A stretch of 64,000 nucleotides of DNA from Marsupella aquatica. Taxonomy: Eukaryota; Plantae; Marchantiophyta. The first letter of the stretch is position 1. Every line of letters begins with the position of its first letter. The position numbers were made by a program, and so were the translations under genes. The stretch spans positions 15,220,645 to 15,284,644 of the forward strand of contig OZ316893.1 in the NCBI GenBank assembly GCA_973895155.1. The letters run 5' to 3'. Positions 3,234-28,490 of the stretch are shown here, piece after piece. The notes beneath the pieces were generated by a model. It saw nothing but the letters and a program-made list of their open reading frames with translations, made no database searches and was not told the origin of the DNA.

Positions 3234-3858
3234 CTCCTCCTTGGGTGCATTGCATCATGGGTTTGGTTAAGGTGATGCAACCATATTGAGTCTACTGTGA
3301 GGGTGTTAACTATTTGATTGTGTAATGTAGTTCTAGTAAAAGAATGAGAAGGTGGTGTTGATGTAGCCTCATTAAAACCTCCTCTCCTTTCTTGCAGGAG
3401 GAAAGAGTGCTACCATCTTTGGATGAAAAGTGAATAGAGTGTCATATTGTAGTTTAGTAAGTAGAGGTTGGGTTAAAATTGGTGTCGGTTGTTATGGTCT
3501 TTAGTGGGGAAGAATCCATGTATTGTGGGTTCTTGGTATTTGTAGTCTATGTGGTGTAAGTATTCTCTACTATGGAGTATCATTACTAATGTGTGGTGTC
3601 TTCCCGAGTAATTTTGCGGATTCGTAGTCGGTGGCGTGGTGCCCTAGTCTTGGTTGGAGCTTGTGTTCTTGGTGGTCGTGGGTTGTGCTCCGGTCGTCGG
3701 CTCCTTTCCTCTGGTGATTGATCGCCCCATCTCCATTCTGGAGGTTGTCCTTGCCGCTTTTGTGAATAATTGATGTTCAGAGTCTTCGGTGTGTCGTTGT
3801 TGTGGATTTCATTAAGGTATCTGTTCTTCAATGCCCTCGGTCCTCGGACTTTTGGATT

Positions 3859-6800: not shown

Positions 6801-8604
6801 AAAGCAATCAGGTATCAGTATGTGATCACGTCCATGACTGGTGCATATGTTAGGTCGTAGTCCCTTCCTGGTATTTGGGTAAATCCTTTGGCCACCAATT
6901 GGGCCTTGTACCTTGCAACCTCTCAATCTGCGTTTCTTTTTCTGACGAAGGTCCATTTGTAGCCAGTCAGGTGTATATCTGGGGTTGCTTGTGTTATTCT
7001 TCCGAATACTTGTCTGGAGATGAGTGAGTCAAGTTCCAAATTGATGGCCTTCTCCCACTTGGGCCAGTCAGGTTGTCTCTGTGCTTCTGTTGTCGTCTTC
7101 GGGTCTGGTAATTCTTTTTCCAGTACCTGTGAAATCTGGAATGCGAACTGGTCGTCTATCTGGGTATTTTCTCGATCCCAAACTTGGCCCGTTTGTTGGT
7201 AATTTATAGCAATTTCGTCATTCTCCATATTTGTGGTTGGTTGAGTTGGTATTGTTGTTGATGACTGTCTTTGAGTTGTTGTAGGTATGGTTCTTCTTTG
7301 GCGTGGTTGACGATCCGTGGCCCCTATCAGGCGTCCCCGTTTGGCCCGTGGTGGGGCCTCAATTGCGGGTGTGCCCTCTTGTTCAATTCTTGCTGGTGTA
7401 TTCGCTGCAGGTACATGTGATTATATCACCTTTGCTACATCTACGAAGGAGTCTGGCAGTTGTTCAATCATTTTGGTAAGATGGATTATCCTCTGAACTT
7501 CTGTGTCAGTTTGGGCTGTTCTTGGATCGTTCCAAAATGTAGATTGTATTTGCCATTCAAGCTCAGTATTTATTTTCTTATCTGTATTCGAGCCTGTTAT
7601 TAGAGTAGGGAGTATATGCTCGTAAAAATGGCAATCCGTGAACCTTGCTTTGAATATGTCTGCTGTTGTTGATTCCAGGTATCGGATGATGGAGGTCGAG
7701 TCAAAGCCTATGTAAATCCCTTTCTGCCTCTGGGGCCCCATCTTTGTGCGCTTAGGGCCCAGGATGGGGACTAATACTTGGCATCTGAATGTCCTTAAAT
7801 GGGATATATTCGGAGTTGTTCCGAATGCTAGGTGGTGGGGTGTCCTATCGTTGAATGCAGATGGTCTGTACTGGAGGAGGGCAGCCGCATGGAGTACCGC
7901 GTGGCCCCATGCTGATGTTGGGAGTTTCGTCTGCATCAATAGAGGTCTGGCTATGATCTGTAACCTCTTGATGAGGGATTCGGCTATTCCGTTCTGGAAG
8001 TGGACATGGGCTATTGGGTACTGTATATTTATTCCTGTTGTTGTGCAGAAGTCTTCAAATGTTTGAGATGAAAACTCGCCAGCATTGTCAACCCTGAGGT
8101 TTCTTATCGGGTTGTCAGGGAATTGTGCTTTCAGTTTTAGGATATGTGCCAATATCCTTGAAAACACTAAGTTTCTGGTTGACAGGAGAGATACTTGTGA
8201 CCACTTCGAGGAAACATCAATGATCACTAGGAAGAATCGGAAGGGGCTGCTTGGTGGATGTATGGGATCGCATATGTCTGCATGGAGTCTTTCCAAGAAG
8301 TTCGGGATGTTTTTGTCTATTTTGTTTGGTGATGGTCTTGTGATCATTTTTCCCTGTGAGCAGGTGAGGCATGGAGTCTGTATGGATCTTGGATGTACTA
8401 TGTTTGGTATTCCCTGTGTGTCCTTTATGATTTTGTGAAACATGCTGGTGCCTGGGTGTCCCAGTCTCTGGTGCCATATGTCTGTGATTGAGGGTGGCTG
8501 TATGGCAGTGTGGTAACTCTATGTTTTTGTGGCATAATATCCCGTAGGGTAGGCATAGAAGGTCTCTTTGACTTTGTTTCCATTGGGGGTTTTGGCAATA
8601 ATAT
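3859..8604 (-). pseudogene. Copia pol: integrase, reverse transcriptase and RNase H, with stops/frameshifts, split by the 4241-5726 insertion
   Basis: WHQRLGHP; CLTC; LHADICDPIHPPSSPFRFFLVIID; LRVDNAGEF; QNGIAES; QMDIVTAYLYG; MYGLKQSGRTW; IYVDDL; GYADAD; SWKSTKQ...TSSNHSEIIA; FEDN; TKHI; ADLLTK. Confidence 0.96.
4241..5726. mobile_element. 1486-bp GC-rich insertion, probable solo LTR with non-canonical AGT...ACT ends
   Basis: Flanked by ATGTA at 4236-4240 and 5727-5731. Removing it restores the RNase H frame KQSLTTTSSNHSEII. Termini AGTCGCGGAACTCG and revcomp AGTGGTGGACCTCG match at 11/14. Confidence 0.8.
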
Positions 8605-9459
8605 CACTAGAAGAATCCGAGGTGAACTGAGACCGCAATATGTGACTCATTTTGGCTCATGTGACTTCATTGTGACTCAACGTGACTTGACCCACATTGT
8701 GACCCTTGGAGTTGCAAAAGTTGAGACCAACAAATGGAAGTCACTATTGATACTGGGCCTTGTGACTTGCTTGATACCCATTTGTGACTGATCTGTGACT
8801 TTATTGTGAAGTCTAGCCTTGTTTCTACGTGACTGCAATATGACTTTGACGAGTCACATGGTAAGTCACATACATGACTTACTCGCATTCAACAACGACT
8901 AGCGTGTGACCATTTAGTGTCACAGGAGAGACCAATGGAGACCCTGGCCCGGGTCACACAACATAACCATTTGGGACTCTATATACTCATGTTTATAACT
9001 AATAAGGTTCACATGCAAGTTGTAACCATGACTAATGGACACAGAGGGACAGTTCATAAGGAGAGAGAGCACTCCACATTACAATACATAGAAACCTGAT
9101 GTTCTAACTTTAGAAATATAACACATTGAATACAAGAAATGAACATAGCATGAATGACATTCACATGAAATAAAGCATCATATAAGGAGGTCCTACACAA
9201 AACATTAATAAGAATTAAACAAAATCATAATCTTGCTCAAAAATGTAGATCATTTGAATTCCAATGGAATAGTTTACAATGTGATCAATGTAATTCAGAC
9301 AAAACAGGAACTCATAATTGATGACTGCAGGATGAGATAACTGAAAGCACATGCATGATACTATGAATCTCCAAGAGGACATGATTCTTGTACTCCTTCT
9401 TGACATCTAAAATCTACATAACATGACTCACACTACGAACAAATAATGGCATGACATTG

Positions 9460-10847
9460 TTATGGATCCTCTATGAACTTGCTTGGCCATAATACCAAAG
9501 AACCTACAGCATCTCCAAGTGTCTTTTGAGGAGGATCATCATTTGTGTTTGGAATGGGAAGGACAGCTTTAGGTTTCACTAGTAATGTGACTAACACTAC
9601 TGAATAACCTCGGGGAATCCTCAGATTCCCATGGAACGTTGTGGAACCAACCTGAACTCTGCCAAATCCTACTCGTGTTCCACTCTCATCAACAGCTAAC
9701 AAGCCACTTTGTCCCTCAGCATTAGGTGCTTTCCCTACTTCCACCTTAGATCTTTCTTCCAGCACCATTCTTAGAGGTTTGTATGAAACCTTTGACGTGG
9801 CTCTGCTCCCACCAGCAGACTTGCTTCGTGTGTGCATGCTTCCTCTCTTCACAGTAGTGAAGCTAGGCTCAGTAGGTTCCTCTGTTAGGACTGTCACAGC
9901 AGTAGGTTCACCACCTGGGAGTGTCATACCAACTAACTCTTTGGTTGGATTTATCTCAACAAGAGGCACACCTGTCATTGAGAATGATACATTCTGCAAA
10001 TCATTTATCTTTGCAATGGAGTCAAGATAGCATGAATCTGGCTCAATGGTATCATTGTCATGCTTGTTGATATCCTCATTTGCCCCAACATTGATATCAT
10101 CCACTCCCTTGCCAATGTCATCCTCATCCAAACATGGTTGACTACCCTCTGTCAAACAAGTTGCTTGTACAGACTGCAACTTTGTTGCCTCTAAATTACA
10201 GCGAGTATTTGCCAGGTTCTCATACTTCTTCTCTGCAACACCTGTCTTATTCTCTATGGACACAACAACCACAATATATGTTACTGAAAATAACACATTC
10301 AACAAACTATGTCAATTCAAACTATACATTTACTAATCATATCCCACACAGTTGTAAAGGCCTTACCTTCAAGCCTACATGTCGTTGGCATGCCAGAAGA
10401 GTGCATCGACTTTGCCACCTCAAGTGGTGATGGTGGAACTCCTGCAGAATTGGAATCAATTTTATCTCTCACCAACACAACAGCTTCCATTAATGTCTTG
10501 AAGTTCACATGGAACAAGTCAGTCAATGAATTCAAACGTTCATTGATCTCTGGAAGACATGTTTTGACAGCCTTCAAACGACCACTTATCTCTGTAAGTG
10601 AAGATCCACCTCCCTACATGACACAGGGGTATAGGTTCAATCACTCCATATGAAATGTTGGGCAATATATGCACAATCAATGTTATATACAGTGTACACC
10701 TGAAATTCAACGTAGGTCATTCAATTACCAATCAGAACTCATATAACTTACATGCTTGGAGGATTCAGATGCACCCTCTTGAGCCCGGGTGTTCACAGTT
10801 TCAGCCCTCAACTCTTCTTTTGAAGGGCTTTGCCCCAATTGGGCTTT
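9460..10847 (-). pseudogene. 3' exons of the CACTA TnpA/ORF2-like gene
   Basis: Exon KAQLGQSPSKEELRAE... lies between TGCAG and GTAAG. The terminal exon ends VGFGRVQ...FHGNLRIPRGYSVVLV...LPIPN...TLGDAVGSLVLWP, a C-terminal motif typical of plant CACTA ORF2 proteins. Confidence 0.7.
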
Positions 10848-10871
10848 CTGCACATGCTTGTGAAAAACAAG

Positions 10872-11871
10872 CGCGTGGCGCACGGCAGCGAAGAGCAAAT
10901 GGCTATGGAGGGGAGCGATGGAGGGGGAGGGGCAGGAGCAGGGACAGGAATAGAATTTGGAGGAACAGCTGGAGGGCAAGGAGATGGTGGAGATGAAGGG
11001 TCAGGAGCTGGACGAGGTGGGGCTGGAGGAGCTATTGGGGATGGAGCAGGGCCATCAGAAGACTTTGGGGAGATCATGGCTGCAATTTTCCATAAGCAGG
11101 TAGGGCTCTCCATAGAGCATGCGCAAAAGGTGGCTGCATTGACACAAGGATTGCTAGACTCTTCTAGGAGCACTGTTCTTGCTGAAGCTCAGAAAACATT
11201 TGAGGAGAGGCAGCATACTAGGGAGAAAGAGAAGAAGAGGAAGAGAAGGGAGGAGAAGGAGACTGTACCTGTGGAGGCCCTCTCACCACGACAGAGAGAG
11301 AAGGCCTTACGTAGACAGGCACGGGCTGCAGATAGGAAAAGAGCCGAGGAGGAGAAGCTGCGAGCAGAGGAGAGAAGCAAGAGGCCAAAAATTCAGAGTT
11401 CGTGAGCAGGTGAAGGAATGTTTTTGCAACGGCTCATTCATTGATGACAGGTTCTTAAACAAGAAAATCAGTCTATCCCTTGCAGACAGAAGGAATCACA
11501 TCAGGGAGAAGCTGAGGAAGTACCTTGGTGAGTGCAAGGACAGTGAGGAGGTGATCAAGCAAAGAGGGTGCCCAAATGATATTCCTGTGGAGGTATGGCC
11601 AGCTTGGATTGAGACCGAGCTGCAGGTTCAAGCCTGGCAGGCAAGGAGATACTGGCAAGCTGAGCTAGAAGTCCTTGCAGTGAGGGTCCAGGCAGGGGAG
11701 ACTATTGACACCCGCCATGCTGATCAAAACCTGCAACATTGGGATGCAAAGTCAATTCAGCTTGGGGACCCTCCCTCACATATGCAAAAGGCATTGATTC
11801 GAGTTGAGAACAGGCCAGTAGTCACTCACAGAATGGGGCAGGGCGGGTCGCTGCGTCTCAAGGCAGAATTT
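10872..11871 (+). pseudogene. TnpA/Ptta-like (Transposase_24-type) exon on the opposite strand, frameshifted
   Basis: Gly-rich and charged region, then RNHIREKLRK...CPNDIPVEVWPAW...THRMGQGGSLRLKAEF followed by a GTAAG donor at 11872. Confidence 0.65.
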
Positions 11872-11946
11872 GTAAGTAGACTCCACCTCCTCTCTCCAAG
11901 CTCTTCCCTCCATTCACCTGATCACCTGAGGCCCTTCTTTGCCTGA

Positions 11947-14533
11947 AGAGCGCCGGCCCAAAGTCCCCTCTTATTGTCAAGCCGTGCGAGCCCTGCAAGC
12001 GCGCTATGCATGCGATCGATAACTCCATCTTTTTTTGTCGGGGCCCTATTTCCGATTATGGTCCGATAGTAATAGAATCGGAAAGACAGTCGGAAATATT
12101 GCTATGGCTTTTTTGGACGTCGTGTCCGATTCCAATCTGACATTGATGCTATCGGACAAACAATCAAAAAGTAATCGGACAGTTTGAATTTTCAAATTTT
12201 TTGACGGTTACCCTTGCGGATTATCGTGGTTGGTTCCATTGACCATTTTAAAACATGTTGGGGGTGATCTAGTGTGGATCTAATTGGGGTGTGACCCAGT
12301 GGCACTAATTGGGACTAATTTGGTTGTCGGTGCATTTTTTGAGGGGGGCAGGAGCGCGAGCATGGGCGACCAATATTGCCAGAAGAGAGGGAGTTGGCTA
12401 AGAAACAAGGACCACGGGCTCTTTGGATTCACTTGAAGGAGGAGCTGGGTTTGGTAAGGAGATTATTTTAAATGCAATGTCTTAATGGGGTGTTGAAATT
12501 TATTTCTAAAAAGCGTATACTAATTTAGGTGGTTGGTTGGATATATGCAGGGCTCAGACAAGGAGGGTGAGGAGGGTGAGGACTCGGCGGACAAGGGCTT
12601 AGGGCATAGCAATGGGGGATACGGCGAATCTGATTCAGAGTCGTCGGACCCAGAGGAGGGGATTGTGGCCATACCCCCTCCTCGCCGGTCCGATACAGTT
12701 AGGGGTAGTGCTAGGGCTCTTCAGTCGACCCGTCGTGGCCCCATAGCGGATGTTCGTGCGACACATACTAGGACCAGTAGGGGTGGTGCTAGTGGGACCC
12801 CTCACCAGCCTAAAGCCATAGGGGTTGGATCTAGTGGCAGACGTGACTCACGGGCTGCTGGCACAGGTGGTGAGGGTCCCCGGCGCCGGTCACGGGCTAG
12901 TGGCAGAGCTGATATTCGAGGCACTCGGCATGTGTCGCGAGATGAGCGACGTGCTGTTGGTGAGTTTGGCCGATTAGAGCCTCATGGGGAAGGGTGTTCT
13001 AGAGGCTCACAACACTCTGGTGCAGATGGGGGTGGCTCGGGAGGTTCTCGTCACTCAGGCTCGACAGGGGGTGGTGTTAGGGCCCCTGGCCAGTTAGGAG
13101 GGAGTGGTGGTGTTGCTGGTGTCTCTCCCCACTCAAGCCACATTGGGGGCGATGTTACTGCTCCTGGTCAGTCAGGAGGGAGTAGAGCTAGTGTCGGTGG
13201 TGTGTCTCACCACTCAGGCTGCATTGGGGGCGGTGTTAGTGCTCAGGGTCAGTCAGGAGGGAGTAGAGGGAGTAGAGGTAGTGTCAGTGTTGTCTCTCAC
13301 CACTCAGGCCGCACTGGGGGTCGTCGACCTGCCCCTGGCCAGTTAGGAGGGAGTACAGCCGGTGGAGTTGGTGTCTCTCACCCTTAAGCCCAGACTGGGG
13401 GTGCTCATATTGCCCTTGGCCATTCAGGAGGGAGCGGGGGTGGTACATCACGGCAGTCCGTTGGCAACGGGGCTAGTGGGGGTGGTGCAGCTTCCTTTCA
13501 TACTTGCCATGCAAGTGGGGGGAGCGGACCTTCCCATGACTCCCTAGCGTCACATGGTGGTGGTGGTGGTGGCGTGGGTCTAGTGCCTCCTATGACCTCT
13601 ACATAGGGGCCAGATGTTGTGGACCAAGTCACCATGGACAAGCCCCCATTCACCCAAGCTCCCGCCCAGACTAGTATTGTACCCCCACCACCTCGGACTC
13701 ATTCCAAAAAAAGGAAGGGACGACATGCTCCATTTTGACTTAGACTAGCTTAGATAGATAGAGATATACTGCGTAGCCTTAGACTTAGACGAGATTAGGA
13801 GTTGGATGTGCTTACTTTTGTGATCCCAGTACTTGGATCACTCTTGTACATTTTGGGGTATGTTTCCCTTTTGGAGTTTGAGTACCCTTTGTGGCCATAT
13901 ATCCTTCTTGTGTTAATTACTTCTATTGGCATTGTCTTTCAAATAACCTCTTCAACATCTTCAACAAATCCCTCTATGTTGTATTGAATAAATTCCCCCA
14001 AGAACCACCCTCAACCCCAACAAAAAAAATCCCCACAAGAAACCAAATGTTGCAATGAACCTAGGTCTTTCCCGAGTAATCTTCCGATACTTTTCCTATC
14101 GCACCCCTCCATTGCTTCCGAATCCCTCCGTTTCGTATGTTCCGATACCAATTATACGTCAAATTCCCATACCAAACCTATCGGAACATCCGTTTATTTC
14201 ACCACCGCAATGTCCGATGGGACTTTTAACGCAATATCCCTTGAAAATTCATATGGACAATTGTCGGACGACAGATCTTCACCTGGTGCAAGGAGAGGCT
14301 TCTTTCGACTCTTGTGACATCAGACACCTAATGTATCCGATTGGAGGAGATATGCAATGTCCGATAGTATTGGTATCGGGTGGTCCGAAACAGGTCCGAT
14401 GGTCCATATCCGATTCTGGGAGTATCGGACGGAGCGATGCAATTAGGATTGGAAACCTCAAAAATGGCGTCGCATTTTCCCGAAGGCGTCCGATGGTGTA
14501 AATATCGGTAAATGGCCCTAAAATGTACTAGTG
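11947..14533 (+). mobile_element. Nested, left-truncated second CACTA element
   Basis: Right terminus ...GTACTAGTG at 14533 (revcomp CACTAGTAC) cuts the host transposase. Many TCCGA/TCGGA subterminal repeats at 14080-14510 and 12050-12180. No matching left TIR found, so the left boundary is uncertain and could extend to about 10872. Confidence 0.8.
12352..13738 (+). pseudogene. ORF2-like 3' exons of the nested CACTA with Gly/Ser-rich tandem repeats
   Basis: Exon EREHGRPILPEERELAKK...LGL|GTAAG, then ATGCAG|GSDKEGEEG... with repeated HSGxxGGxVxAPGQxGGS units. In-frame TAA at 13385-13387. Confidence 0.55.
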
Positions 14534-17396
14534 ATAGATGTGGTCAGGTTCTTTGTGGTTGCAGCCCCTTCCAGTACTTCACCTATCACCCCTTTCTCCT
14601 CATCTGAATTCCACACCCTGGTCTTCACATGCTCATATTGTGCTATGTATTCGGTCAGAAATCCCAGAGTCTCATCCTTGATGTAACCTTTAGCCATGCT
14701 TGCTTCAGGTTTGTAATATGTTCTCACGTGACCTTTGAGTAGCTTCATGTACCGTTCCAAAGGGTACAACCAACGAGCACTCACAGGCCCAAATTGGTGT
14801 AGCTCTTCCACAACATGGACAAGTAGGTGGGTCATGACATCAAAAAATGCGGGAGGAAAATAAATCTCCAGGTCACACATCACCTGAGCGACATCTTCTA
14901 TCAGTTGCGGGAAGTGTGTTTCATCCCAAACCTTCACACAAATACGACGAAACACATCACTGAGTCGCATGATCACATTACAAACAGGCTTCTGCAACAA
15001 GCCCCTCAGACATAAAGGCAACACCTGTTGCATCAACATATGGTAGTCATGGCTTTTCATACTACCAAGCTTTCTAGTCATGATATGCTTCTTGAAAGCA
15101 CTGCCATAGTTTGAAGGAACCTTCAAAGAACTCAACCTCTGCACAAATAGTTGCCACTATGTGTCTGTCAAAACATAGGGCACTTGGTACTTCAAGAGCA
15201 CATCAGCTCTGTGGGCATGTGGCCTCAACCAAAGATGGGGTTTCATTCCCCTCTGTTCAAGATCCAATCTCACTGAACTAGTGTCTTTCTCTCCACACAA
15301 GAATCTGAGTAGACTCTCACAAATATTCTTCTCAATGTGAATAACATCAATGTTATGTTTGCTTGGCTCAAACTCCTGCATTGTTGCAATGCAAAAGCGT
15401 CAGCAAATGCCTCAAGTTTAGTCTCTCTTCAAAATGAATGCACATGCTCTGAACCAAAACATGTATCCCAATTTGCATCAACTCCAAGAGGCTTACCCTC
15501 CAATACTTGAGCTCCAAGTCCAATATGCTCAGTCTTTTTACACCATATCGCTTTATTGGATCACTCACTCCATCTTCTTTGCCCCCTCGTTTGATATAGT
15601 CATCCCTCAGTGCTCCCCACTGCCTGATCTCCTCTTTGGTCACTCGTGCCGGGGGTCCACGTTGCTCAATCTCATTGCCAAAGTCTGCAATCAGTGCTTG
15701 TCTTTCTCTGTAAGGGTGATATGTCTTCAAAAAACGACGATGGCCCATGTATATCACTTTCTGCAGGGCTCTGGAGTACTCACTGGTGACATTGCGCCCA
15801 TAGATAGTACAAGCACAATATCCTTTTGTTGTTTGGTCTGATATCATCCCATGGGCTAGGTAGTCAGCTACAGTTAGAATGACGATGGCTCTAAGGATGA
15901 ATGGGTTTAACCTCCCAAGCCTCTGTAGGACATCATATGTGAGGACTCCTTCCTCCCAAAGCTTTCTCAATTCCTCCACTAGGGGAGCCAAAAACACATC
16001 TATGTTGGCAGATATAGCACTGTCTGGCCCTGGTATCATTAGGACCATCTGAACAAAAAATCGCTTTGTAGTCATCCAAGGAGGAAGGTTATAATTCAAA
16101 ATAGTTACAGGCCAACACGGAAATTTGTTGTTCTTGTCTCCAAATGGGTTTACCCCATCCAATGACAGCCCAAGTCTGACATTCCTCGGCTCAGCAGAAA
16201 ATTCGGGATACATCTCATCTATGAGTTTCCACTACCTTGAATCTGCAGCATGTCGTTGTAGCCCATTATCACTTTTCTTGTCAGTTGCCCAAGTCATCAT
16301 CTCCAAGATGGCACGGCTTCTGAACATCCGCTGAAGTCTGGGAATGAGTGGAAAATGACGAAGTACCTTGGCGGGAACCATAGACTTTCCTGAGTTCCGA
16401 TACCTGTGCTTCCCACACTTAGGGCATGTCAACGATTCTGCATACTCCTTTCTGAAAAGAACATGCCCATCGGGACAGGCATGGATGGAATCATAGTTCA
16501 ATCCAAGATTAGATATGCATCTTTTTGCCTCGTACATGTTCTTGGGCAAAATATTACCATATGGTAGCATAGTTGTTCGCAAGAATGCCAACAACTCAGA
16601 AACCAAAACGTTGGGGACATTGCACGGTTGCCGCAAATGTTCAGGAACATGATGACAAATCCCAGTTTAGAACATTTGCTACCGGGGTACAAAGACTTCC
16701 TGCCTTCCTGTATTTGCAGGGGAGAGCCAAACATCCCATCATGCCCAGGGGTTTCCTGCCCTATCTCAAACTCATCAAGAGGCTCTTCGACAGGGGGCAC
16801 ACTTGCATCTGCAGCCATATCCTCTTCGTTGTCCAACCCATCGTGAAATGCATCCTAGTCTTGGAAGATGTCTCTCACCATCTCTTCCACATGAATTCCT
16901 TTGTCACGTGGTGTTGCCTGAGCACCATCCCATTGGAGAGCTGACAACCCACAGAGACCAGCTACAACATTTTCAAATGCACCAGGCAGAACCTCACTTG
17001 CCCGTCTTGCAGCATTGGCAGCATCAAATTCTAACCTCCACTCCTTGTTGGAAGAATCTTCCTCTACAGGATCATTCCAAACTCGATGTTGTGGATCTCT
17101 TCCATGAACCGCGATATGCCGCCAAACCTCATTCAGACCCCTGGTACGGGATCCTTGGCAGATTGCACAAGGACATCTCATCCTACTGGCTCCTGAAAGT
17201 CTGGTTCGTAACCTTTCACACTGCCAAAGCTTATTATCATGGCGTGATATCCTTGTGGGATGATGCAAAGGCAGTGCCTATGCCCTAGGCTGGGTCTGGG
17301 GAGGGTGGTGACCAGGGTGCATTGTAACAGGCTGGGAGCTCTGCAGTCATAGACAGCAGTGAACAAGGATGCCTAATGGTGGTATTTGTGTTCCAT
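14534..17396 (-). pseudogene. CACTA TnpD-like transposase (Tnp2/Transposase_21 + DUF4218-like), frameshifted and 3'-truncated
   Basis: RCPCAIC...RHIAVHG; IHACPDGHVLF; CPKCGKHRY; LRHFPLIPRLQRMF; PRNVRLGLSLDGVNPF; NYNLPPW; IDVIHIEKNI; MKSHDYH; FPPAFFDVMTHLLVH; GPVSARWLYPLERYM. Confidence 0.97.
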
Positions 17397-17621
17397 ATAT
17401 CCCTGACTGTATCTGCCAAAAGAGTTAACATAACGTGTACTAAATTCTACCCTAAACCACCTCAAAAGAAAAAAAACAGGTTCGCGAGTAGTGTACCTAT
17501 TGTCAAGTGAATGACACAGAATTCCTAAATGTTGGAGGGTGTCACCACCTCCTCCGCTGTCCTCAAATATACGGCCTCTGCATGTACACCCATGACCATA
17601 TCAGAGTCCAATCATGTTTAG

Positions 17622-18190
17622 TCACAGGCACAGGTGTGAGAGCGGTATCAGATATCTCACCTTATTACCAGGTGAGATATGGTACCAACCCTGTTCTTGA
17701 TGCCACTCAGACCTCAGGTACTCAGGCATGTACATTAAATCATCAAGGTCTAAACCCTGCTCATGCCATGGGGGTCTTGCATCCGTGCCTACAAGCAGTG
17801 GATGCACTGCCCTCCACTGGGGGCAAGTTGCTACCAAGTCCCTCCACCGTGTATTAATTTGTCTATATTTGCAGATATCTTGTGCACAGGACACCACAAG
17901 AACCCTCGGCCAGACATGTGAAAGAACTATATCATCTGCCAAATCAGGCAACAAGGAACCACCTACAACATCGGGCTTGTCTAACTCATCTACTGAAAAG
18001 TAGATGTCCACTTCCGACTATGCATCCTCGTTCACGATAGATTCAGCGTCTCTTGCATCCTCAGGCGGTGCCAAGAAATGTTTTAGCACCAACCCATGCA
18101 AGAGAGTCCTAACTGTGGCTAGCCATATGGCAACTCGGAGGAGGAGCTGTAATAGCGCCTGTTGATCTAGGAAAGGTAACATACCCATCA
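17622..18190 (-). pseudogene. F-box-like cargo ORF with one in-frame TAG
   Basis: LLPDLADDIVLSHVWPRV...ICKYRQINTRWRDLV fits the F-box pattern LP..I...I...L......L..V...WR.LV. The ORFs 18018-18305 and 17622-18011 are in frame across one stop. Confidence 0.6.
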
Positions 18191-18408
18191 AAGTCTGCCG
18201 CCGAGATTTGAGCCCACCCAGTACGTTTACAGTGACACCCCCAGGCAGCAGGAAACAACAATCCGCCAACAGTAAAATAAGCCCAACTGCCACCAACCAT
18301 AACAAGGTACATTAGTTCAAAGATCACATTTATTTCAATGATCTGATTTATACAAAAAAACTTGTGTCCAAATTGATGCTACTACTCCTCACTCTGATGG
18401 GGTATTTA

Positions 18409-18655
18409 CAAACGACAGGAAACAGCAAACAGTAACAGAAAACAGAAACTGGTAACAGGAAAATGAGTGGTAATTTTTTTGAATTTTTTTTAATTCAAAA
18501 GGGTAGCGCCCAAAGCTAGCCAAAAAATGTTGTAACTTAGATTTTTTTGGAAAATGAAACTTTTTAGAAAACATTTTGACATGGTTATTTTTGCTGGTAA
18601 CAGGAAAAATTTTCCTGGTACCAGTAAACCTGTTTCCTGTTTACTGTCACGCGTG
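18409..18655. mobile_element. MITE related to the 32612-32925 element
   Basis: Inverted ends GACAGGAAACAGCAAACAG / CTGTTTCCTGTTTACTGTCACGCGTG around an AT-rich core. Shares GCTAGCCAAAAAAT with the 32.6-kb copy. Confidence 0.7.
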
Positions 18656-19534
18656 CCATACCCACTCTGATTCAGAATCGCTAATGACCCATTCCTCACT
18701 TGTTGTCTCATAGTCCTCTCTGTAAGGATCCTGACCCTTCCGTGGCCAGGCCTCAAAAAGATCATAGTCCATTGGGTTTTGATGCTTCCCAGTTGCTACT
18801 GATTCCACAAACCAAGCATATGAAACCATAAACACATTATGGGACATGACATAAAAGCGAATGTCTCCCTTCCCAAACTTGCCGCAGGCTTTGGGATATG
18901 ACTTAGTAATGACATGAGTGGTGTCCTCTATTATATTCTCCTCCACTGTCCCACCTAGGTCAAGCACTGTGGACTTGTACACTTTGCACTTAACCTCTCC
19001 AATTCCCGCCTCCACAAATACCATGCTCAGCCCTTTCAGAATGGGGGTTGGTTGCTTCGTCTCCTCAGCCAACATACTCTTCAGCCTTGTAGAGCTCTGT
19101 CCTTTGTTGAGTACAGGTCCATATTGGAGATCAGCAAGCCTTGCCTTTGCTTCCCAGACTTCTTGTTCAGCCCAAGCTGATGCAGTAGCTTCTTCATCCT
19201 CCCACAACTCATATTGCTCAGTATCCTGTACAATCTTATGTGCTATGGAATCTGTGATCCAAGAGGCCTCAACTACTTTTAGGCCTTGCTTAGTAATTAC
19301 AGAATTCATGTAGGACCATGACCACTTCTTTATCACTGATAGCCATGTCCCTGCAACAACATGTGTAGTCTCTGGAGTGATGTCCTGAACTACAGTGCCA
19401 TGGAGCTCAGAGAATCGTTTCTGTACAGTTGGCCAATGCACTTTGGTCAACCCATGCTGGCCATGGACCAAAATGGCTCTGACCCCTGTAACCACTGTTG
19501 GGTGGTCACACTTTCTATGTTTCCCAGGCTCCAT
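18647..19534 (-). CDS. Tandem BRCT-domain protein (DNA polymerase lambda-type BRCT), CACTA cargo
   Basis: Open 295-codon frame with two repeats: ...GTVVQDITPETTHVV...VVEASWITDSI...YEL and LKGLSMVFVEAG...LGGTVEENIIEDTTHVI...KFGK...VSYAWFVESVATGKHQNPMDYDL. Splice acceptor 11 nt before the ATG. Confidence 0.85.
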   Translation of the reverse strand: MEPGKHRKCDHPTVVTGVRAILVHGQHGLTKVHWPTVQKRFSELHGTVVQDITPETTHVVAGTWLSVIKKWSWSYMNSVITKQGLKVVEASWITDSIAHKIVQDTEQYELWEDEEATASAWAEQEVWEAKARLADLQYGPVLNKGQSSTRLKSMLAEETKQPTPILKGLSMVFVEAGIGEVKCKVYKSTVLDLGGTVEENIIEDTTHVITKSYPKACGKFGKGDIRFYVMSHNVFMVSYAWFVESVATGKHQNPMDYDLFEAWPRKGQDPYREDYETTSEEWVISDSESEWVWHA

Positions 19535-20126
19535 GTACACACACCCTACGTGATGACAATGAATTTTGGAAGAATGGGTTCACCTGACAATACAAGGACA
19601 ACAAAATTCCTGCTTTTTGAGTTGATCTGGCCCACTGGTGCTCAGGTCTGATTTTGATAGGTACAAGGGATATGTGAACAATACGTACTAGGCACCTGCA
19701 CGGATGCAGGACATTGTTTGAATATATACTACAAAATCCATATCGAAGGTGAAATGAAGTGTAACCAACTTGTCATGGCACATACATATTTTGTTGTAAA
19801 GGAGGATACATTCAATGACAAACTTATAGGGCAATTTGATTAATTGCATGCCTGATAATTTATACGCTTACAACTTAGAAGTCCTATTTTAATTTAGCAG
19901 TCTGATGAAAGTGTTTATGAAAATGACCACTCAGCCTAAATACTTCCAAGAAGGCTTGTAAGGATAAGTTTTTATAGGCATGTACCCAGCCACTGACGCC
20001 AGAGCACAAGATAAGTGCTACCTATATAAACTCGCCTACCCAACTCCTTTTCAAAATTGGAATCTCTGCAATCTCAAAAAATAGTACATCCACATCAGGT
20101 GCACTGTGCATGTACAATGTTCAGCT

Positions 20127-20771
20127 TCACAGCCAAGATATGTGATCTCTCATAGGAGTGCGCGAGGTAGGATCAATGGCATGGCGATGACAATAAAATA
20201 TCCATCGATCAACACCATGTGCAGAGTGATCATAGATTTCTCTATCACAAGCATAACCCTTTGCTTGACGATCTTTCAGGCAATGATAGTGCCACATAGT
20301 GGGACACCTAGCATAGTGGACTATGTCAGTCCAATAGTCATCATCATGCTCACCACATGCCTTGCACCTATGAAGTGGGCAAGCTGTGGCATGAGCAGGC
20401 AAACACTCAAAACAGAAAAATCTCACACAAAAACGGTATGGACATTTCCTAACATTTGCTGCAGCATCAACAGAGCCCTCATAGGACCCCAACTTCCCAC
20501 ATTGTGCACACTTAGCCTGCTTCTCCAAACTATCAGTGCACATCCAGTCTCCCTGGTGTGTTGACGGGAGGCCCACCCCTGGACAGTTGTTTTCTGCAGC
20601 AAGGTCAGACTCCGGGTTGAGGTGGAAATGCCTGATGCAAGGGCCCTCACAAATGACCAGGCCCCTACCATCATCACAAATGGCACAACAATGAGCTGCC
20701 TTTTGGAAAATCTGACTTGTGTTTCTCATCTCTGTCACACGCTTTTTGGCTTGAATTTTAGGTCGTGCCAT
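20127..20771 (-). CDS. EDM2-like composite PHD-finger protein, CACTA cargo
   Basis: CAICDDG...CEGPCIRHFH...C...CAQCGKLGS...CPLHRCKAC...RCPTMWHYHCL...IFYCHRHAID...TPMRDHI follows the EDM2 PHD region motif by motif. TGCAG acceptor 2 nt before the ATG. Confidence 0.85.
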   Translation of the reverse strand: MARPKIQAKKRVTEMRNTSQIFQKAAHCCAICDDGRGLVICEGPCIRHFHLNPESDLAAENNCPGVGLPSTHQGDWMCTDSLEKQAKCAQCGKLGSYEGSVDAAANVRKCPYRFCVRFFCFECLPAHATACPLHRCKACGEHDDDYWTDIVHYARCPTMWHYHCLKDRQAKGYACDREIYDHSAHGVDRWIFYCHRHAIDPTSRTPMRDHISWL

Positions 20772-20782
20772 GCCTGCACATG

Positions 20783-20926
20783 AGATAGACTCTACAATTT
20801 AGCAGACTGCACAAAAAGTAATATATATTTAGCATTTAAGGTACAAAAGCATTTAGATAGACTCTACAATTTAGCAGACTGCACAGAAAGTAAAATATAT
20901 TTAGCATTTAAGGTACAAAGGCTTTT
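20783..20926. repeat. Tandem duplication, 2 x 72 bp
   Basis: AGATAGACTCTACAATTTAGCAGACTGCACA... starts at 20783 and again at 20855. Confidence 0.9.
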
Positions 20927-21498
20927 GCTACTGCAATGAATTGGAATGGCCACACAAGGATGCAGAGCAGACATACTTTTGGTATGTTGAGCCAACACAC
21001 AAAACTGATCCCCTAATACAATTGCTCCACCAACACCTCAATTTTAATTGTGGCTATGATTCACCAAAGGAGATCAGCAACAACATTTCATGCATTTGAA
21101 TCACATACAATAGTCGTGACATGTAAAATAGACATTCTTCAAAGAGGATTGGTATGAAGCAGTGTCATAAGGGTTTAAATTTATACATCCTAAATAGGCT
21201 ATGATAGTGGCTGAGACAAATAAGTGAGGCATAAGTCACATTTTATAGGTTATCACATGGCCCATTAATTCATTGAACGTTGCAATGTTCACCAGGTTAA
21301 AGCAATCATGAAAGTAGTCTTTCAATAGAGACTTTTAAGCGAGTTTGCTAGCCTCTTAAATTAGGATATTTTGCTTAGTGCAGGCATAATAGGATAAGTT
21401 ATGTACTGTTGACCTTAAACCCTGGACCCAAAATTGCTCATACATCAAAAATTTAAGTAAATATCCTCTGTGTTGAAATCAGAGTGTTAAGCTATAGG

Positions 21499-21993
21499 TC
21501 AATGGTATCTGGTCTGTGCATGCGGTGTGACAAGTGGTCCTCTAGAGCATGTGATCCAAACATGTGTAGACACCAAAGTCACCGGTGGTGGGGTCTGGGA
21601 GGGCAGGACAAGTAACATCACCAGGCACACTGCAGGATGGCGAGTGGTTCCAGATGATACATTGTGCTCTGTGCAAAAATCAGCATCCAAGAGAACGGTC
21701 ATCCAATTCTGAGCCAGAAGCCTACAAGCAGGACAGTCATATTGGCAACTATGCACACACCCTTGGCACCTAATTTGTGGCGGGTCATGTACAAGAGACT
21801 GTACAAATACCAAGGATGTCGGGAAGGGTACTGAAGCAGGTAGAGGCCGGCTGTAGTTGTTCCTGGAAACAACTGGGTACTCAAAGTACCATGTAGACTG
21901 GGCTGGAAGGATCCCAAGTCTGACATACTCAAGGCGCAACATCTCTGCCTTGCGTGCGAGCCGCACATGTTCAGCGTTGTGGGTCCTCACCAT
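21499..21993 (-). CDS. Unknown Cys-rich ORF, possible CACTA cargo
   Basis: 164-aa ORF on the same strand as the other cargo, containing CQGCVHSCQYDCPAC. Family not recognised. Confidence 0.35.
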   Translation of the reverse strand: MVRTHNAEHVRLARKAEMLRLEYVRLGILPAQSTWYFEYPVVSRNNYSRPLPASVPFPTSLVFVQSLVHDPPQIRCQGCVHSCQYDCPACRLLAQNWMTVLLDADFCTEHNVSSGTTRHPAVCLVMLLVLPSQTPPPVTLVSTHVWITCSRGPLVTPHAQTRYH

Positions 21994-22506
21994 AAGTGTT
22001 GCTTTTGTTGTGATGTCCTCTGTTCACGTCCTTTGATGAGCAAGGCAAGCAGGAGGTCGACTTGCCTCTCCAACAGCAACCAACCTAAACTAATCAGTTC
22101 CCATTCATTGTCTTGCTTCCAACTACAGGTCATAGTATACACATAGCATGAAACATGCATAGTACATATTTGATTCTGAGTTTATGAGTTTCCTAAGACA
22201 AAGAGCTTGGTGATAAACCCATGATCTCGATGGACATGTATATCAATCATATTAAGATCCTATTTTTTCATCCTGAAAGACCAAAAGTCTCACCTTGCAG
22301 GTTGCACTAGAGAGAAAATTCACTGGCTGTCATGTTGTGCAAGTGAACCTCCACTGATGCCCCCGGTGTAGCCCCTCAGATGCAGGTGACACTTACCAAC
22401 TCCCAAGTTGCCTGGTCTAAAAGAAAATGCTGATATCTTCAGAACTTTATAGAGCAAGTACATGATCACATGGCGTTGGCCCTACCAAACTGTACGTTCA
22501 GAAAGA

Positions 22507-22605
22507 GACTACAATATTCATAAAGAGTCAACTCTACACTTGGTTCATACACATACTTCTGGATATATTCATATTTGGCCTTATGGAACTCTTGCCAACT
22601 ACAAC
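22507..22605 (+). pseudogene. Captured ubiquitin fragments
   Basis: DYNIHKESTLHLV at 22507-22545 (ubiquitin has DYNIQKESTLHLV) and GTLANYN at 22585-22605. Confidence 0.75.
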
Positions 22606-23097
22606 TTACTCCCATTATGCACAAGCTCACATCAACAGAGAAAGATACAGAATGCATACTTACTATGGCTGTAAGCACCTTCACTACCTGTTGAACCCAG
22701 TCCTGAAGTCTTTTCAGCGTGTTTGTTGTGCTGTCTCCTTTGATACCCAACACCTTAGTCCTTGATGTAACAGAATGCGATTTGACAAGTTAGATGCTTT
22801 GGAACCTTCTATGGTCTTAGCTGAATTGATGTCATCGTAAGTGGTGAAAGACAAGGAAGACAAAAGCTGGTTGAAGAGCTGTGGACAACACACTAGCATG
22901 AAGTGCTTCAACCAATCCACTGCCAAACGGAACTCTTACACAGTCACATTCTTTCAGTAAACAGAAACTCAGTCAAACTTCATAATCAAAGTACAGACTC
23001 TGAAGGACCAAAGGAGGATGTTGTGAGTTTCTCTGTTGTTTAATGTGTTACACTTCTAGTTTTGAAGTTAGCAAATGCTGAATAATGTGTCTACCAG

Positions 23098-23439
23098 ATC
23101 TTCGAAAACAAGCCCACCACAATTAAGAACTTCGGTATCTGGGTGAGGTATCATAGTCGTACAGGTTATCACAACATGTACAAGGAATATCGTGATACCA
23201 CGTTGAACGGAGCTGTAGAGCAGGTGTATGATGAGATGGCTTCTTGTCATAGAGTTCGGTTCCCTTGCATCCAGATCATCAAGACTACGACAGTCCCTAT
23301 CTCTCTGTGCAAGCGAGAAAGTACCAAGTAGTTCCATGATTCAAAGATCAAGTTCCCCTTGACGTACCGCAAGATTCAACCTCCATCGCGAAAGCTGAAG
23401 ACGACTTACAAGGCCACTAGGCCCAACACATTTGTTTGA
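23098..23439 (+). pseudogene. RPL18A: Captured last exon of 60S ribosomal protein L18a (eL20)
   Basis: CAG|[44 protein letters not shown]...IQIIKT...[10 protein letters not shown]...[12 protein letters not shown]. Premature TAG at 23329-23331; upstream intron acceptor retained. Confidence 0.95.
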
Positions 23440-26400
23440 GTAGTGCGGGTGCAGCTTCCCAATTTTGAAACAATTTTGCTCATTTTATGTCCCGAGGGAC
23501 TCCAGGAGTTTATGTATTGAGTTTCTAGGTCAAGATGCTTAATATAAGTGAGTACGCATCAGTGGATACAGTGAGAGGGCTAAAATTTCATATGTCTGGA
23601 GTTGAAAGAACCCAACAAACACACTACCAAAATTAGAAAGAACCCAATAGACAGAGTACCGTTCTCAGGGGAGTTACAGGTCAACTTTCAAACATAAGTG
23701 TAACCATTTCAAGGCCAAACTTTATTAACTCCCCAAAACAGAGCACAAGGAAGCAAAGGACTTAAGCCAACCCGTCAAAGTTTCAGACCTGTCAATGCAG
23801 CAGCTCCCAAGTGTGCTTAGGTAAGCTCGGCTCAAAATCAGCCTCAATAGCTCCCACGCTGAGTACCACTGATTGTAGGCAATATGGAGCCTGAGACTAC
23901 CATCATTGTTCAAATTTGAGGTGAGGAAAGAGGGTACCAAAATTCTAGAGAACCCAATACCAAACATGCGGTGGCCTTAAATATCATTCCTATATTTATA
24001 TTCACAGCAAAGTGTTTAATTTTCATAAGCAAGTTAGGGTCGAGCTCGAAATACACTTACAACCAGCCGAATGTCAATAGCGCTCACTGCGGAAGGTTGA
24101 GATGTGTCGCTGATGGTAGCGCGTTTGCAATCCCCTCCACCTGACCAGTTGCAGCTCACAGTCATTTTCAGGAATTAATGTGTATCCTGTACCTCATTCA
24201 TTTCCTCATTATTTTCCCCAACTCAAATATTGGACTGCCATTTAGTTAAGCCTGTCTTTAATTTCTAACACCATGGAAGATTCGACTTACTGAGTAATGA
24301 CTTTAACCAGAGCGAACTAGAATGAACGAAACATCTCACGACATCATGGACAATTTAAAGTGACAAAATACAAGATACAGAATAGGATACAAAAGAGGAC
24401 ATGGCAAAAAGGACGAGTTGTAGGCTTGGAACGAGAAGAATGATAGAGAGACTCCAGAGTCTATCTTACCTTCACAAACTCTGAAAGATTTTACAAGCAT
24501 TACAATGTGCAAATGAATGAGCTCTCAAGACCAAATACATTTTCGCCTACACTGAAACAGAGTCCACAAACTCTGTACCCAACCGCTGTTGGAGGAGCTC
24601 CATCCCCACAATCGATTGAAAAAGCACATTCAACCTGAGCTGAGAGCGATTCCGGAAGGACGGACGGGCATTGAGTCACAGACAATCATGTGAGTTTGGG
24701 GTCCCAGGCGCATCTGTGATAGGAAAAAATAGCTCGGCCGCAGTTGTGATGGCAGGGCGGGTGCAGTAGGAGGCACTCATCAGGCAGCTAGGGAGGGAAG
24801 GGAGGGGAGGGAGAGAGGGAAGGGAGAAGAGGGAGAGATGGAAGGGAGCGGAAGGAAACTTCGAGCCCCCACAGGGGGAAGTCACTCTGTCTTACTACTC
24901 ACTTACAACAAATGAAGGTCACAGGTCCTTAAACCCTATCCCGAGTCACAATCATAAAATGCAGCTTGCATCACACAATTAAAAGAACACCAGGCAATTG
25001 AAGGAAGCAGCATTCGGCAATGGACCTAGGCAGCTCGCGAATTTCGCTCAGTAGCGATGTCACCTAGACCCTAAACACACAATGCATACATCACCTAGAC
25101 AACTATACTTGCAGCCACGAGGTGAGTCCGCGTCGATAGGGGATTGCAGCCTTACCTGTGCCGATGTAGCACCAAGCCGCCCTAACTGAAACTGCGTAGC
25201 AATCCACAGCAATCGCTCAATGCAAAAGCAGGGCCCGGTTGGCCTTGCAGCCCGATCATCCACCTTCAACCCTGCCACCAAGCAATGAGCTCTCCGCTGT
25301 TGCTCACCCTAAACCTTCAACACTCCCGCGAAGTTGTGTCTGCTTGCAAGAACAACTCCTTGCGAATCTTTCAACCCGGCCTAAACCCATAGCACAATCG
25401 CAAAACCTAGCAATGTCACCGCTGCAACGTTTTGTGCTTGCAATAAGCAGCCTCCTAAACCCACAGCTCCTTCCACCGTTCACAAAATGCCAATGACTCA
25501 ACCCTCCTTCCAACCCCGAGCTCCCAATAGTAGCAAGAATCCAAGCAGGGTCTCCTGCAAGCGCACAGCAGAGACAAGATCTCTCGGAGCTCAATAGGAT
25601 TCACTCGAAGGCCCAAGCCTGACAATGTTCGGCTCTTCCTTCCCGCTCACCAAATGCCAAAACATAGGGCGCGCGAACCAGTGTTGTTTCTCCCAAGGGT
25701 TTTGGTACAAGGGGTTCGGGCAAAACAATCTGTGCAGGGCAAAGGCATTACGATGTAACATGTGGAAACTTGCGGCATGGTCCATTAGGTGAAGGGGTTC
25801 ATGAAGCCAATTGAGGGCAACACGCATTACAAGGAAGAGTAGGGAAAAATGACCACTCAGCAAAGGCATTGCATGGTACCCTTAACAAAAACAGTCCCTA
25901 ATATTGGGCCGTTCAATATTCCTACATGAAGGGAGCTGCAACCATTTGAAAATGGCCAAGGGGTATATTTGGAGACAGAACGCTGCCAAATGATGTTAGT
26001 GGGTTCAGTGTGTGTCTTTCTGTTTGTATGATGGAGTAACCAGTGGCCAAAATCATGGCGCGCGACTTGCAATTGCACCAGCCTCAGGTATATATAGCCA
26101 CACCTATAATAATTGTCAATCATACAGATAAAGTATAAAAGGACTGTCTGGTTAGATTTGGGATGTGGGCTGAGATTATTATTTAATAAGAGCCAAAGTT
26201 ACATTGTTCTTATATATGTGCAACCATGGTGATAAAGATGGCAGAAAGCGCTATTATAATTGTGCTGATCGAGCCACTTATAAAACTTCAAAATAGTTGC
26301 CTACACTAAGTTACAATTGCAACACTCCAAATAGTTATAGATATGACTCTCCAAAAATTCACCAAAACTTAGTTGAGAAGGTGTAACAAAGATGACACCA

Positions 26401-26486
26401 ATAACCTTGGAGTCACTGATTTCCAAAGGTCTCAAGACAGTCATGCAAGGGAGGGTCTCAGATAGGGCCGGTTTCTTCTGGTGTAT

Positions 26487-27835
26487 GTAACACTTCTTGT
26501 GTATTTATCATGTTGGTGTGTATGTGCAGGTCATTTGCACGTATGTCTTTGAAACTGAACAAGTTTCTTGTGGCTTTTGGGGCGTATATTGCTGCTGAGA
26601 TGTGGATGATTGTCCCTCTCGGTAGTATTATTATTGCAGGTCCATATCCTTCCTCTAGTTGGTGTTGGCCTAGTATGGTAGTAATTCGTCTTTGGGAGGG
26701 GATTATTTTGCTAAAGTATTTTCTCTCCCGCAGGATTGTGTGGGTTGTCCCACTATCAACGATGCAAAAATCCAAATCATTCATGGTTGGGTTTTGGTTT
26801 ACCAAGTGGATTTCTGGTAAGATTTCAGTAAATTCTAGAAAAGCTCCATGGGTCTCAAATTCCGGTTGTGTTAAGCTCTTTTTGTATAGAGCTACCAGGT
26901 GGGTTGGGGCGCGGCATACCTTTTGTGTACATGGCCTCTAGTTCCACACCTGTAGCATGTTATCGGGTTGTCTTGTCTCCCTCTTTGGCTGCTTCCTGTC
27001 TTGGTTTCTCTGTTGTGGGTATCTGGATCCTCTCCTCCATGTTGTTCTTTCGTTGTTGTATCTCCCCCTGCCTCGGCCCCTGCCTCCATATGGTGGTCTT
27101 CTTCGTCCCCCTTGGTTATATCCTCCTCTGCCTCGGAATGTTCCTCTGCTTCGGTATTGACCTCTTTCTCTATATAGGTTCCTGTTCCTGTTTTGTGTAT
27201 TTTGGGGTGCAGTGTAATGTGTTTCAGTGTTGGGCTGCGGGGGAAGGGTTCCAGGGGGTCTTTCTCTAGTGTTTTGTAGTAGGAGGATTTGATGCTTTTC
27301 TGCTAGTAGCATGTGTGCCATTAATTCTGAGTATTTGGTGAATCTCATGTTCCGATATTGAGTAGATAGGATCAGATTTGTTGAGTGAAGTGTTGATAAG
27401 GTTTTCTCGATTTGTTCTTCGTCTCCCACCGGTTGATTGCAGATGGCTAGTTGTGAGGTAATCCTGAATAACTCACTGTTGTATTCGGCAATCGTTTTGA
27501 AATCTTGAACTCGCAGGTTTACCCAGTCGTGCCGTGCCGCGGGCAGGAATATCGTCCTTGTGTGATCAAACCGTGCTTGCAGCTCATCCCATAGTATACA
27601 AGGATTATATTTGTTCATATATTGTCGCCTTAGTGGTTCTGCCAAATGATGTCTTATGAGTATTAGAGCTTTAGCTTTTTGCTGAAGTGTTGGTCTTGCG
27701 TCCGTTAGAGTACGTAGCATCTTGGAGGTCCTTTGATGTCAAATGCGCCTCTACATCGAGTGACCATGATAGGTAGTTAGATCCGTCAATGCTTAATGCC
27801 TGGAAGAGCAATTTTTCCATTGTATTGGTAGCCAT
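26487..27835 (-). pseudogene. Copia gag and protease, frameshifted
   Basis: FQALSIDGSNYLSWSLDVEAHL; ARHDWVNLRVQDFKTIAEYNSELFRITSQL; zinc knuckle CYRCG; protease IVDSGTTHTIL. Confidence 0.95.
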
Positions 27836-28336
27836 CTGCTTTCACTGGTTGTATATTGGTTCCCAATGTTTTGGGGAAGATAATTATGATCCAAGTCTCA
27901 ATTGATGATTGTAAAGTCTCAATCTGTGGTATAATTCTGAAATTTTGGAGGGAGAGGAAAGAAATGGATTATCTTGATTGGTGTCAGAGCTTGAAGTGGG
28001 CGTTGGGAATTCGCCTCAATCAATGTCGTTTCTTTTCTTTGGAATTCTGCTATTCTCAGTTGTGAATGTTGCATTCATTGCTCCAGTAACCGTTTTTAAT
28101 CGTTGGGTGCTCTTCGTGGTGTCATTCAACGTGTGGGGACCACATTCTCATCCTCCTTGAATTTGTGATCCCCCTTTTTTGTGTCAATTTAGATTGTCTA
28201 AAAGGGAGAAGAGAAATCTCCCTCGTGTCCAAATGATTTCTCAGTCAGGAAAAAAAAGAATTCCTTGATCTGTAGCCAAGCCACTCTCATCTGGTTCTAC
28301 ATCGATTTCCTTGAAAAAAATTGTGGAGCGCTATCA

Positions 28337-28347
28337 TGCTGATAACG
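28337..28347 (-). other. Primer-binding site, half-tRNA-Ile type
   Basis: Minus strand reads CGTTATCAGCA directly after the 5' LTR. This is complementary to the tRNA-Ile(IAU) anticodon arm rather than to a tRNA 3' CCA end. Confidence 0.75.
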
Positions 28348-28490
28348 TGTTGAAACACCACCAGAATAATGTTGTTCTTCTCATTCATGTGTGTGGTCTT
28401 TATACATCGAGGTGGTTACTTTAATAGTAACTACCTAAGGTTTGGTGTTAAACCTTACCCTGAAGTAGACTTAACCTATGGGTTCTAACA
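28348..28490 (-). repeat. 5' LTR of the copia element (143 bp)
   Basis: Matches 3092-3233 except for one substitution and a 1-bp indel. Confidence 0.95.

Follow-up and report, generated by a model that had tools for sequence, protein, structure and literature searches.

The window, by which we mean the whole 64,000-nucleotide stretch of contig OZ316893.1 from the liverwort Marsupella aquatica, contains a CACTA (En/Spm) DNA transposon that splits a host Copia retrotransposon and carries a stand-alone EDM2-type triple-PHD ORF among its cargo (Table 1). The terminal 30-mers of the CACTA element are inverted, with 22 of 30 positions matching; the left terminus reads CACTA and the right terminus CACCA, a difference of one change. 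A 3-bp target duplication (TAT) flanks the element at 8602-8604 and 26484-26486, and the empty site, with 8601 joined to 26484, is present in one contig of run X2. Subterminal GTGACY repeats are concentrated at the left end, where the first 400 bases hold 10 of 15. The Pfam matches within the element are Tnp2, DUF4218 and Transpos_assoc. The inverted ends, the duplication, the Tnp2 match and the empty site confirm that the PHD ORF lies inside a transposon, as the first-pass annotation had proposed. Because the LTR cores of the Copia element are 99% identical, the CACTA insertion into it is recent.

Table 1. Features of the CACTA element and its insertion site (window coordinates).
Feature	Coordinates	Strand	Remarks
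Host Copia retrotransposon, split by CACTA	3092..28468	-	LTR cores 3092-3212 and 28348-28468, 99% identical
CACTA (En/Spm) DNA transposon	8605..26483	.	17.9 kb, dead copy; ends, target duplication and Tnp2
TnpA-like second ORF, C-terminal part	9460..10613	-	no Pfam match; high depth
Low-depth insert	11170..14533	+	CACTA-type right end at 14533; left limit is a depth-bin edge
Tnp2/TnpD transposase, several pieces (stops, frameshifts)	14518..17277	-	PF13963, PF02992 (4e-58), PF13960
Broken F-box-like ORF	17622..18311	-	no Pfam F-box match; region varies among copies
Twin-BRCT ORF (stand-alone), another conserved cargo gene of 295 aa	18647..19534	-	Pfam BRCT 2.9e-11
Stand-alone EDM2-type triple-PHD ORF, 214 aa and stop	20127..20771	-	intronless within ORF; three Pfam PHD matches
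Tyr153, zinc-ligand Cys in family, finger 3	20313..20315	-	private among compared runs
Ser81, zinc-ligand Cys in family, end of finger 1	20529..20531	-	private among compared runs
Broken Cys/His-rich ORF, upstream of PHD gene	21545..21993	-	no Pfam family
RPL18a copy, internal stop, no intron here, captured passenger	23086..23440	+	PF01775 5.8e-19

This copy of the CACTA element is dead, since its transposase is broken and its middle has been replaced. The Tnp2 region also shows indels relative to other copies, which are represented by contigs of other runs. The low-depth insert is likely a piece of another CACTA element that took the place of the Tnp2/TnpA junction; a matching left end for it was looked for and none was found. 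A Gly/Ser-rich tandem repeat of 80–90 nt occupies 13017-13436 within this insert, and a second low-depth stretch in the right arm (23850-26385) may be an insert or a variant form of the arm. The summed depths in X1 and X2 are 32,405–343,260 in bins 8634-11169 and 14340-22581 versus 825–3,585 in bins 11170-14339 and 23850-27000. Depth is distinct from copy number, but the contrast is in keeping with a many-copy family of which this member holds two low-depth inserts. With the same proviso that depth is not copy number, the depth of the PHD region (78,011 in X1 and 343,260 in X2, against 33,262–115,804 for the transposase) is as high as that of the transposase and is consistent with a regular cargo. 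The CACTA family of this dead copy is apparently successful. The cargo region is present in part in 8 of the 10 listed runs, which cover five organism codes and six studies. The copies were compared in five sequencing runs, of which X1, X2 and X5 are well covered and X8 contributes one contig only; no long contig joins the PHD gene and the transposase of another copy in these runs.

On the minus strand, the coding sequences follow one another in the order broken Cys-rich ORF, PHD, twin-BRCT, broken F-box-like ORF, Tnp2 pieces and the TnpA-like end, the last of which we take to be TnpA-like from a motif. The twin-BRCT ORF has two relatives among 1,174 candidates, both unnamed, 294–295 aa long and 52–57% identical. 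It matches Rtt107, LIG4 and BRCA1 weakly in the PDB, and its predicted model is unusable (pLDDT 32.6). The second BRCT repeat presumably resembles the BRCT domain of plant polymerase lambda. The resemblance of the next ORF to F-box proteins is likewise our assumption; other copies carry deletions or rearrangements there (joints 17659-18198 and 17749-18239). The depth over the Cys/His-rich ORF is among the highest of the element (165,035 in X1 and 310,569 in X2). The stop codon of the RPL18a copy differs in X2 and X5 and the depth is intermediate; the piece is likely carried by a subfamily of the element. Elsewhere in the window, a MULE at 33117-37412 has terminal inverted repeats of ~270 bp and a broken MuDR transposase, and non-autonomous inverted-repeat elements lie at 31943-32264, 45084-46238 and 49373-50462, the first two of which share end sequences with 44777-44992. 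Host genes are represented by a START/Bet v 1 (PYL-like) ORF at 38832-39464 (+), a Prp3_C-domain ORF at 57094-57759 (+) and an exon at 61725-62105 (-), which we take to resemble HAPSTR1/C16orf72.

Translated, the PHD ORF gives 214 residues and agrees with the earlier description in its N-terminus, in the CAICDDG and TPMRDHI motifs that bound the PHD region and in the substitutions at CTDS and HYARC. Pfam matches PF23011 (residues 27–52), PF22908 (84–128) and PF23004 (136–169) follow one another in this order; the three are NSD/EDM2-type PHD matches, each below the curated cutoff. The Pfam scan of the ORF revealed no further domain, which agrees with the earlier description of a PHD-only protein without the other EDM2 domains. 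The Atlas places the ORF in Streptophyta NSD-like PHD clusters (0.91) and adds nothing beyond Pfam. An AG located 2 nt before the ATG is a possible splice acceptor, and a 72-bp tandem duplication (20783-20926) lies directly upstream of the start codon. A fusion of PHD and BRCT by splicing is not favoured: P0002 and P0003, the nearest relatives, stop at the same place as the PHD ORF, and a stop codon lies in frame after the strongest of the acceptors that precede BRCT.

The two substituted cysteines are restored in other copies. Cys codons occur at 20531 and 20314 in 99–100% of the depth in X1, X2 and X5, and P0002 and P0003 have Cys at both positions, which upholds the suggestion that this copy has decayed. 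Across the PHD ORF, 31 differences reach the listing threshold of at least a 40% share. Ten of them, present in no less than 85% of the depth of each of X1, X2 and X5, are private to the present copy; these comprise six non-synonymous and four synonymous changes and include Ser81, Tyr153 and Arg36, the last in the DDGG motif. The other 21, of which 12 are non-synonymous and 9 synonymous, are each carried by some of the copies and are too few for a selection test. Loose contig ends near 20717 in X1, X2 and X5, together with a gap relative to P0002 and P0003 at the ORF start, suggest that this copy lost ~12 N-terminal codons, including the conserved Phe of the family.

The ORF belongs to a family of short PHD-only proteins. 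A near-length search retained two of 46 candidates, P0002 (226 aa) and P0003 (220 aa), which are 77–78% identical to the ORF and share its end residue. The family counts approximately 20 unnamed short relatives at 31–81% identity, and a representative search returned 178 matches, in which short proteins with the family motif make up 17 of the best 150, including all of the top 8 (assigned by eye, with the doubtful row P0200 excluded). The PHD-only members measure 214–245 aa. Intact relatives pass the Pfam cutoff of 27, as P0233 scores 28.5 on PF23004 and P0096 scores 27.7 on PF23011. Eight near-complete members form a clade with support of 100/99 in a careful tree of 38 rows, and 12 members form one with support of 99 in a quick tree of 69 rows. 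The 25 Cys/His columns that are invariant in 23 host rows hold Cys or His in most of the 8 family rows; one of them has changed from His to Cys in all eight, and a His of 21 of the 23 host rows is replaced by Ala in all eight. Thus, when the family is consulted as the first-pass annotation had advised, the zinc ligands prove to be kept family-wide. A basic N-terminus also recurs across the family. A metagenome scan gave 172 pattern matches with none confirmed as a family member, and the sole locus traced from 94 metagenome matches (28% identity over 49 aa) was rejected as a chance match in bacterial-looking DNA with an interrupted frame.

In relatives with 31–58% identity to P0002, the zinc ligands, the region of the start and the position of the stop are preserved and family-specific residues are shared, and the stem of the family is long (1.2–1.35 changes per column) with the ligands retained. 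These observations stand against a neutral Pack-CACTA passenger that was amplified together with a successful element, which we regard as highly unlikely, even with a stop-containing RPL18a copy in the same CACTA, six non-synonymous changes among the ten private ones and the many relatives that are truncated or frameshifted. Judged from the sequences, the PHD gene appears to be long-maintained cargo and not a fresh accidental capture, where we infer from short contigs, truncations and architecture that the distant relatives are transposon-borne. Source records were consulted for 13 family proteins; every one is from Logan, JGI/IMG or ENA, with no informative name. It is quite improbable that the distant short relatives are ordinary host genes of a domesticated PHD-only family and that a recent uptake by a CACTA element occurred in this lineage alone: short host EDM2-like proteins such as Marchantia P0130 (280 aa) exist, but none of the 13 derives from an annotated genome and decay is frequent.

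To place the origin of the module, 7,941 candidate proteins were considered, of which 92 longer plant proteins match it at E<=1e-3 with 24–34% identity. The source names of 34 of these, counted by eye, are ENHANCED DOWNY MILDEW 2, and none is named NSD. Among the matches listed, identity to long host proteins does not exceed 39%, far from the recent, near-identical host fragment expected of a neutral Pack-CACTA piece. The PHD family groups with the EDM2 family against NSD-like rows with support of 100/95, or 99/98 with N-terminal columns added; the outgroup consists of four algal or unnamed rows, which we take to be NSD-like from their motifs, and includes no animal NSD. The proposed EDM2-family origin is therefore borne out by both the matches and the tree. 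The module itself is of the EDM2 composite type, with three linked fingers, the EDM2 ligand pattern and the C-terminal motif.

The position within the EDM2 family is less sharply defined. A placement as sister to all other EDM2-family rows receives weak support (72/76). The best trees put the PHD family outside the canonical land-plant EDM2 clade (92/93), but nesting inside it is compatible with the data (p-AU 0.178). Constraining the family with the liverwort paralogues gives a log-likelihood 0.47 above that of the free tree (p-AU 0.52), and with pre-finger columns added the best tree has the two as sisters (44/85). When the family profile was run against 226 other proteins, the top score went to P0105 (175 bits), in which the module is internally duplicated, followed by Calypogeia P0104 and P0235 (144 bits), Riccia P0110 (130) and Marchantia P0109 (123); by the best single stretch, P0122 (120.5) and P0109 (118.9) lead and P0104 reaches only 96.7. 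Over the 14 residues before the first Cys, family members score 21–34, P0235 11.8, P0104 11.4 and the next best 5.4, against a background with a mean of -8.6 and an SD of 4.5 (214 proteins; the motif was noticed by eye before scoring). P0104 and P0235 are the only host proteins with the upstream F[ST]xAEVN-type motif in register. The liverwort EDM2-like paralogues end at the PHD module. A liverwort EDM2-like paralogue is thus favoured as the nearest host relative, with weak tree support, and the donor was presumably a bryophyte EDM2-like paralogue, probably of a liverwort. Separate clades of short EDM2-like paralogues with a C-terminal PHD module occur in liverworts and mosses (P0104, P0109, P0110, P0121 and P0123; P0115, P0137 and P0237). 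A literature search on the Marchantia paralogue Mp1g03210 found no paper, and our finding points to this little-studied liverwort EDM2 paralogue.

According to one study, the fingers of EDM2 bind H3K9me2 and other marks, AIPP1 bridges EDM2 and ASI1, and the use of distal poly(A) sites is promoted by the AAE complex (PMC7472560); in another, EDM2 lowers silencing marks at COPIA4 and raises them at the DNA transposon Mu1 (PMC7529245). The first-pass annotation had pictured an EDM2-like reader that mimics or competes with EDM2 so that a long element is transcribed through. The origin, the stand-alone form, the location and the cysteines of the family agree with an EDM2-like reader; the read-through role found no direct support. 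In its fuller form, this explanation holds that the protein engages AIPP1/ASI1 as an EDM2 mimic and lets the polymerase pass proximal poly(A) sites to reach the distal transposase gene. The EDM2-family origin speaks for it. So does the gene order: cargo ORFs and transposase form one minus-strand row, AG sites precede the starts of PHD and BRCT, and in such an arrangement the selection of a poly(A) site would be of consequence. A further point in its favour is the reported activity of AAE in distal poly(A) use (PMC7472560). Nevertheless, we consider it improbable. The acidic, PGR, methyltransferase-like and proline-rich regions of an EDM2 orthologue are missing and the PHD region alone is present, identity to the EDM2 family is ~30%, and the nearest host relatives are liverwort EDM2-like paralogues, not canonical EDM2. 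Host-conserved positions have changed: R166, found in 23/23 host rows, is lost in 8/8 family rows, and W192 is kept in 2/8. The acidic tract before finger 1 is absent in the family (1.7 versus 8.6 D/E per 20 aa; 21 versus 102 rows) and is also weak in most liverwort paralogues; without it, classical H3-tail binding may be altered. Competition with a promoter of distal poly(A) use would, moreover, be expected to shorten transcripts.

The structural data are compatible with a reader-type fold. The model of P0002 (75-row alignment) has a pLDDT of 86.5 and a pTM of 0.81, with disorder at residues 1–23 only, and Foldseek aligns it best, in each case partially, with PZP and NSD PHD-C5HCH readers. 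A PDB sequence search with the PHD ORF retrieved only AIRE PHD1 (E 0.52), and neither this search nor Foldseek found a solved structure of an EDM2-type module. In studies of NSD proteins, the NSD1 module binds protein and does not read H3 (PMC4838375), the NSD3 module binds H3K9me3 and the NSD2 module binds H3K4me0 with H3K27me3 (PMC4838375; PMC11724302). Modules of this class can differ in ligand, and the NSD ligands, which vary among paralogues, are not transferable to the PHD family. The family offers a compact protein of 220 aa with a confident model, suited to testing the ligands of EDM2-type modules.

We propose that the PHD ORF represents an accessory gene in a decayed state, whose family product is predicted to act as a chromatin-binding adaptor or decoy in counter-silencing, with a probability of roughly 0.45. 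The gene is probably a maintained functional accessory gene; if it is, counter-silencing stands at about an even chance against targeting or another job. The protein consists solely of three zinc fingers behind a basic N-terminus and can therefore only bind; it has no catalytic or DNA-binding domain to explain the relief of silencing, which argues against counter-silencing. In the proposed course of events, an EDM2-like paralogue that already had its PHD module at the very end would have been captured once, in ancient times, and the inter-finger linker would then have been lost. Long purifying selection on the element would keep the gene, intact copies would supply the protein in trans, and this small nuclear adaptor or decoy would help the CACTA element to counter host silencing.

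The same protein might instead serve as a targeting subunit. It would then anchor the transposition complex to particular chromatin, while the twin-BRCT protein would bring repair factors to the sites of excision and insertion. The reader-type fold of the P0002 model, the co-oriented conserved BRCT cargo with its weak matches to Rtt107, LIG4 and BRCA1, and the insertion of this CACTA copy into another transposon are in line with such a role. We nevertheless judge it unlikely, as the PHD module and the transposase are separate proteins, a single insertion site is represented and the BRCT model cannot be used. Counter-silencing, the preferred reading, can be extended tentatively to the whole cargo: bryophyte CACTAs could possibly carry a virus-like non-catalytic kit, composed of an EDM2-derived reader turned against the heterochromatin-reading pathway of the host and of twin-BRCT, F-box-like and Cys-rich proteins. 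If true, a transposon would here, for the first time, encode a counter-defence derived from an EDM2-family module.

The origin and conservation of the PHD cargo are well supported, and transposon accessory chromatin genes are already known. A literature search over titles and abstract openings, outside most subscription journals, supplements and repeat databases, yielded no transposon-encoded EDM2-type PHD among the matches listed. In a 2026 review of plant transposon gene capture, the term 'PHD' is absent and the accessory precedents are VANC and KIU/Ulp1; the plant anti-silencing genes reviewed there either encode binders of DNA motifs, as VANC does, or hold captured protease domains, as in KIU/Ulp1 (PMC13317346). 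If a DNA transposon uses a conserved, stand-alone module for reading heterochromatin, its route would differ from both and would act at the level of histones or their readers.

The family resembles EDM2 and the ASI1-AIPP1-EDM2 system in the composite PHD module, the zinc-ligand pattern and the C-terminal TPxRDH motif. However, EDM2 comprises ~1,200 aa, whereas the family proteins comprise ~220 aa, are transposon-borne and lack the acidic, PGR, methyltransferase-like and proline-rich regions listed for EDM2 (PMC7529245). A linker of ~25 residues is deleted in the family, and one ligand has changed from His to Cys. The liverwort paralogues (Calypogeia fissa CAM6087769.1, which is P0104, and Marchantia Mp1g03210, which is P0109) have the PHD module at the C-terminus as in the family, but are host proteins of 619–768 aa with a long N-terminal part. 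NSD1-3 PHD modules (PDB 2NAA, 9GBF and 4GNG) share the Pfam NSD-type profiles and a partial fold match (target TM ~0.6), yet differ from the PHD family, whose finger 1 contains the EDM2-type insert and which carries the C-terminal motif. Pack-CACTA capture places host sequence inside CACTA ends, as outlined in the review (PMC13317346), and the RPL18a piece fits this pattern; unlike such pieces, the ORFs for PHD and BRCT are complete, are conserved as proteins across divergent copies and are far from any host gene found. The VANC and KIU/Ulp1 genes of Vandal MULEs are accessory genes beside the transposase of a plant DNA transposon, like the PHD gene, and hold captured host domains conserved over long times, as in the PHD family (PMC13317346). 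VANC recognises DNA motifs of its own element (PMC13317346), whereas the CACTA cargo is a predicted histone-reader-type module.
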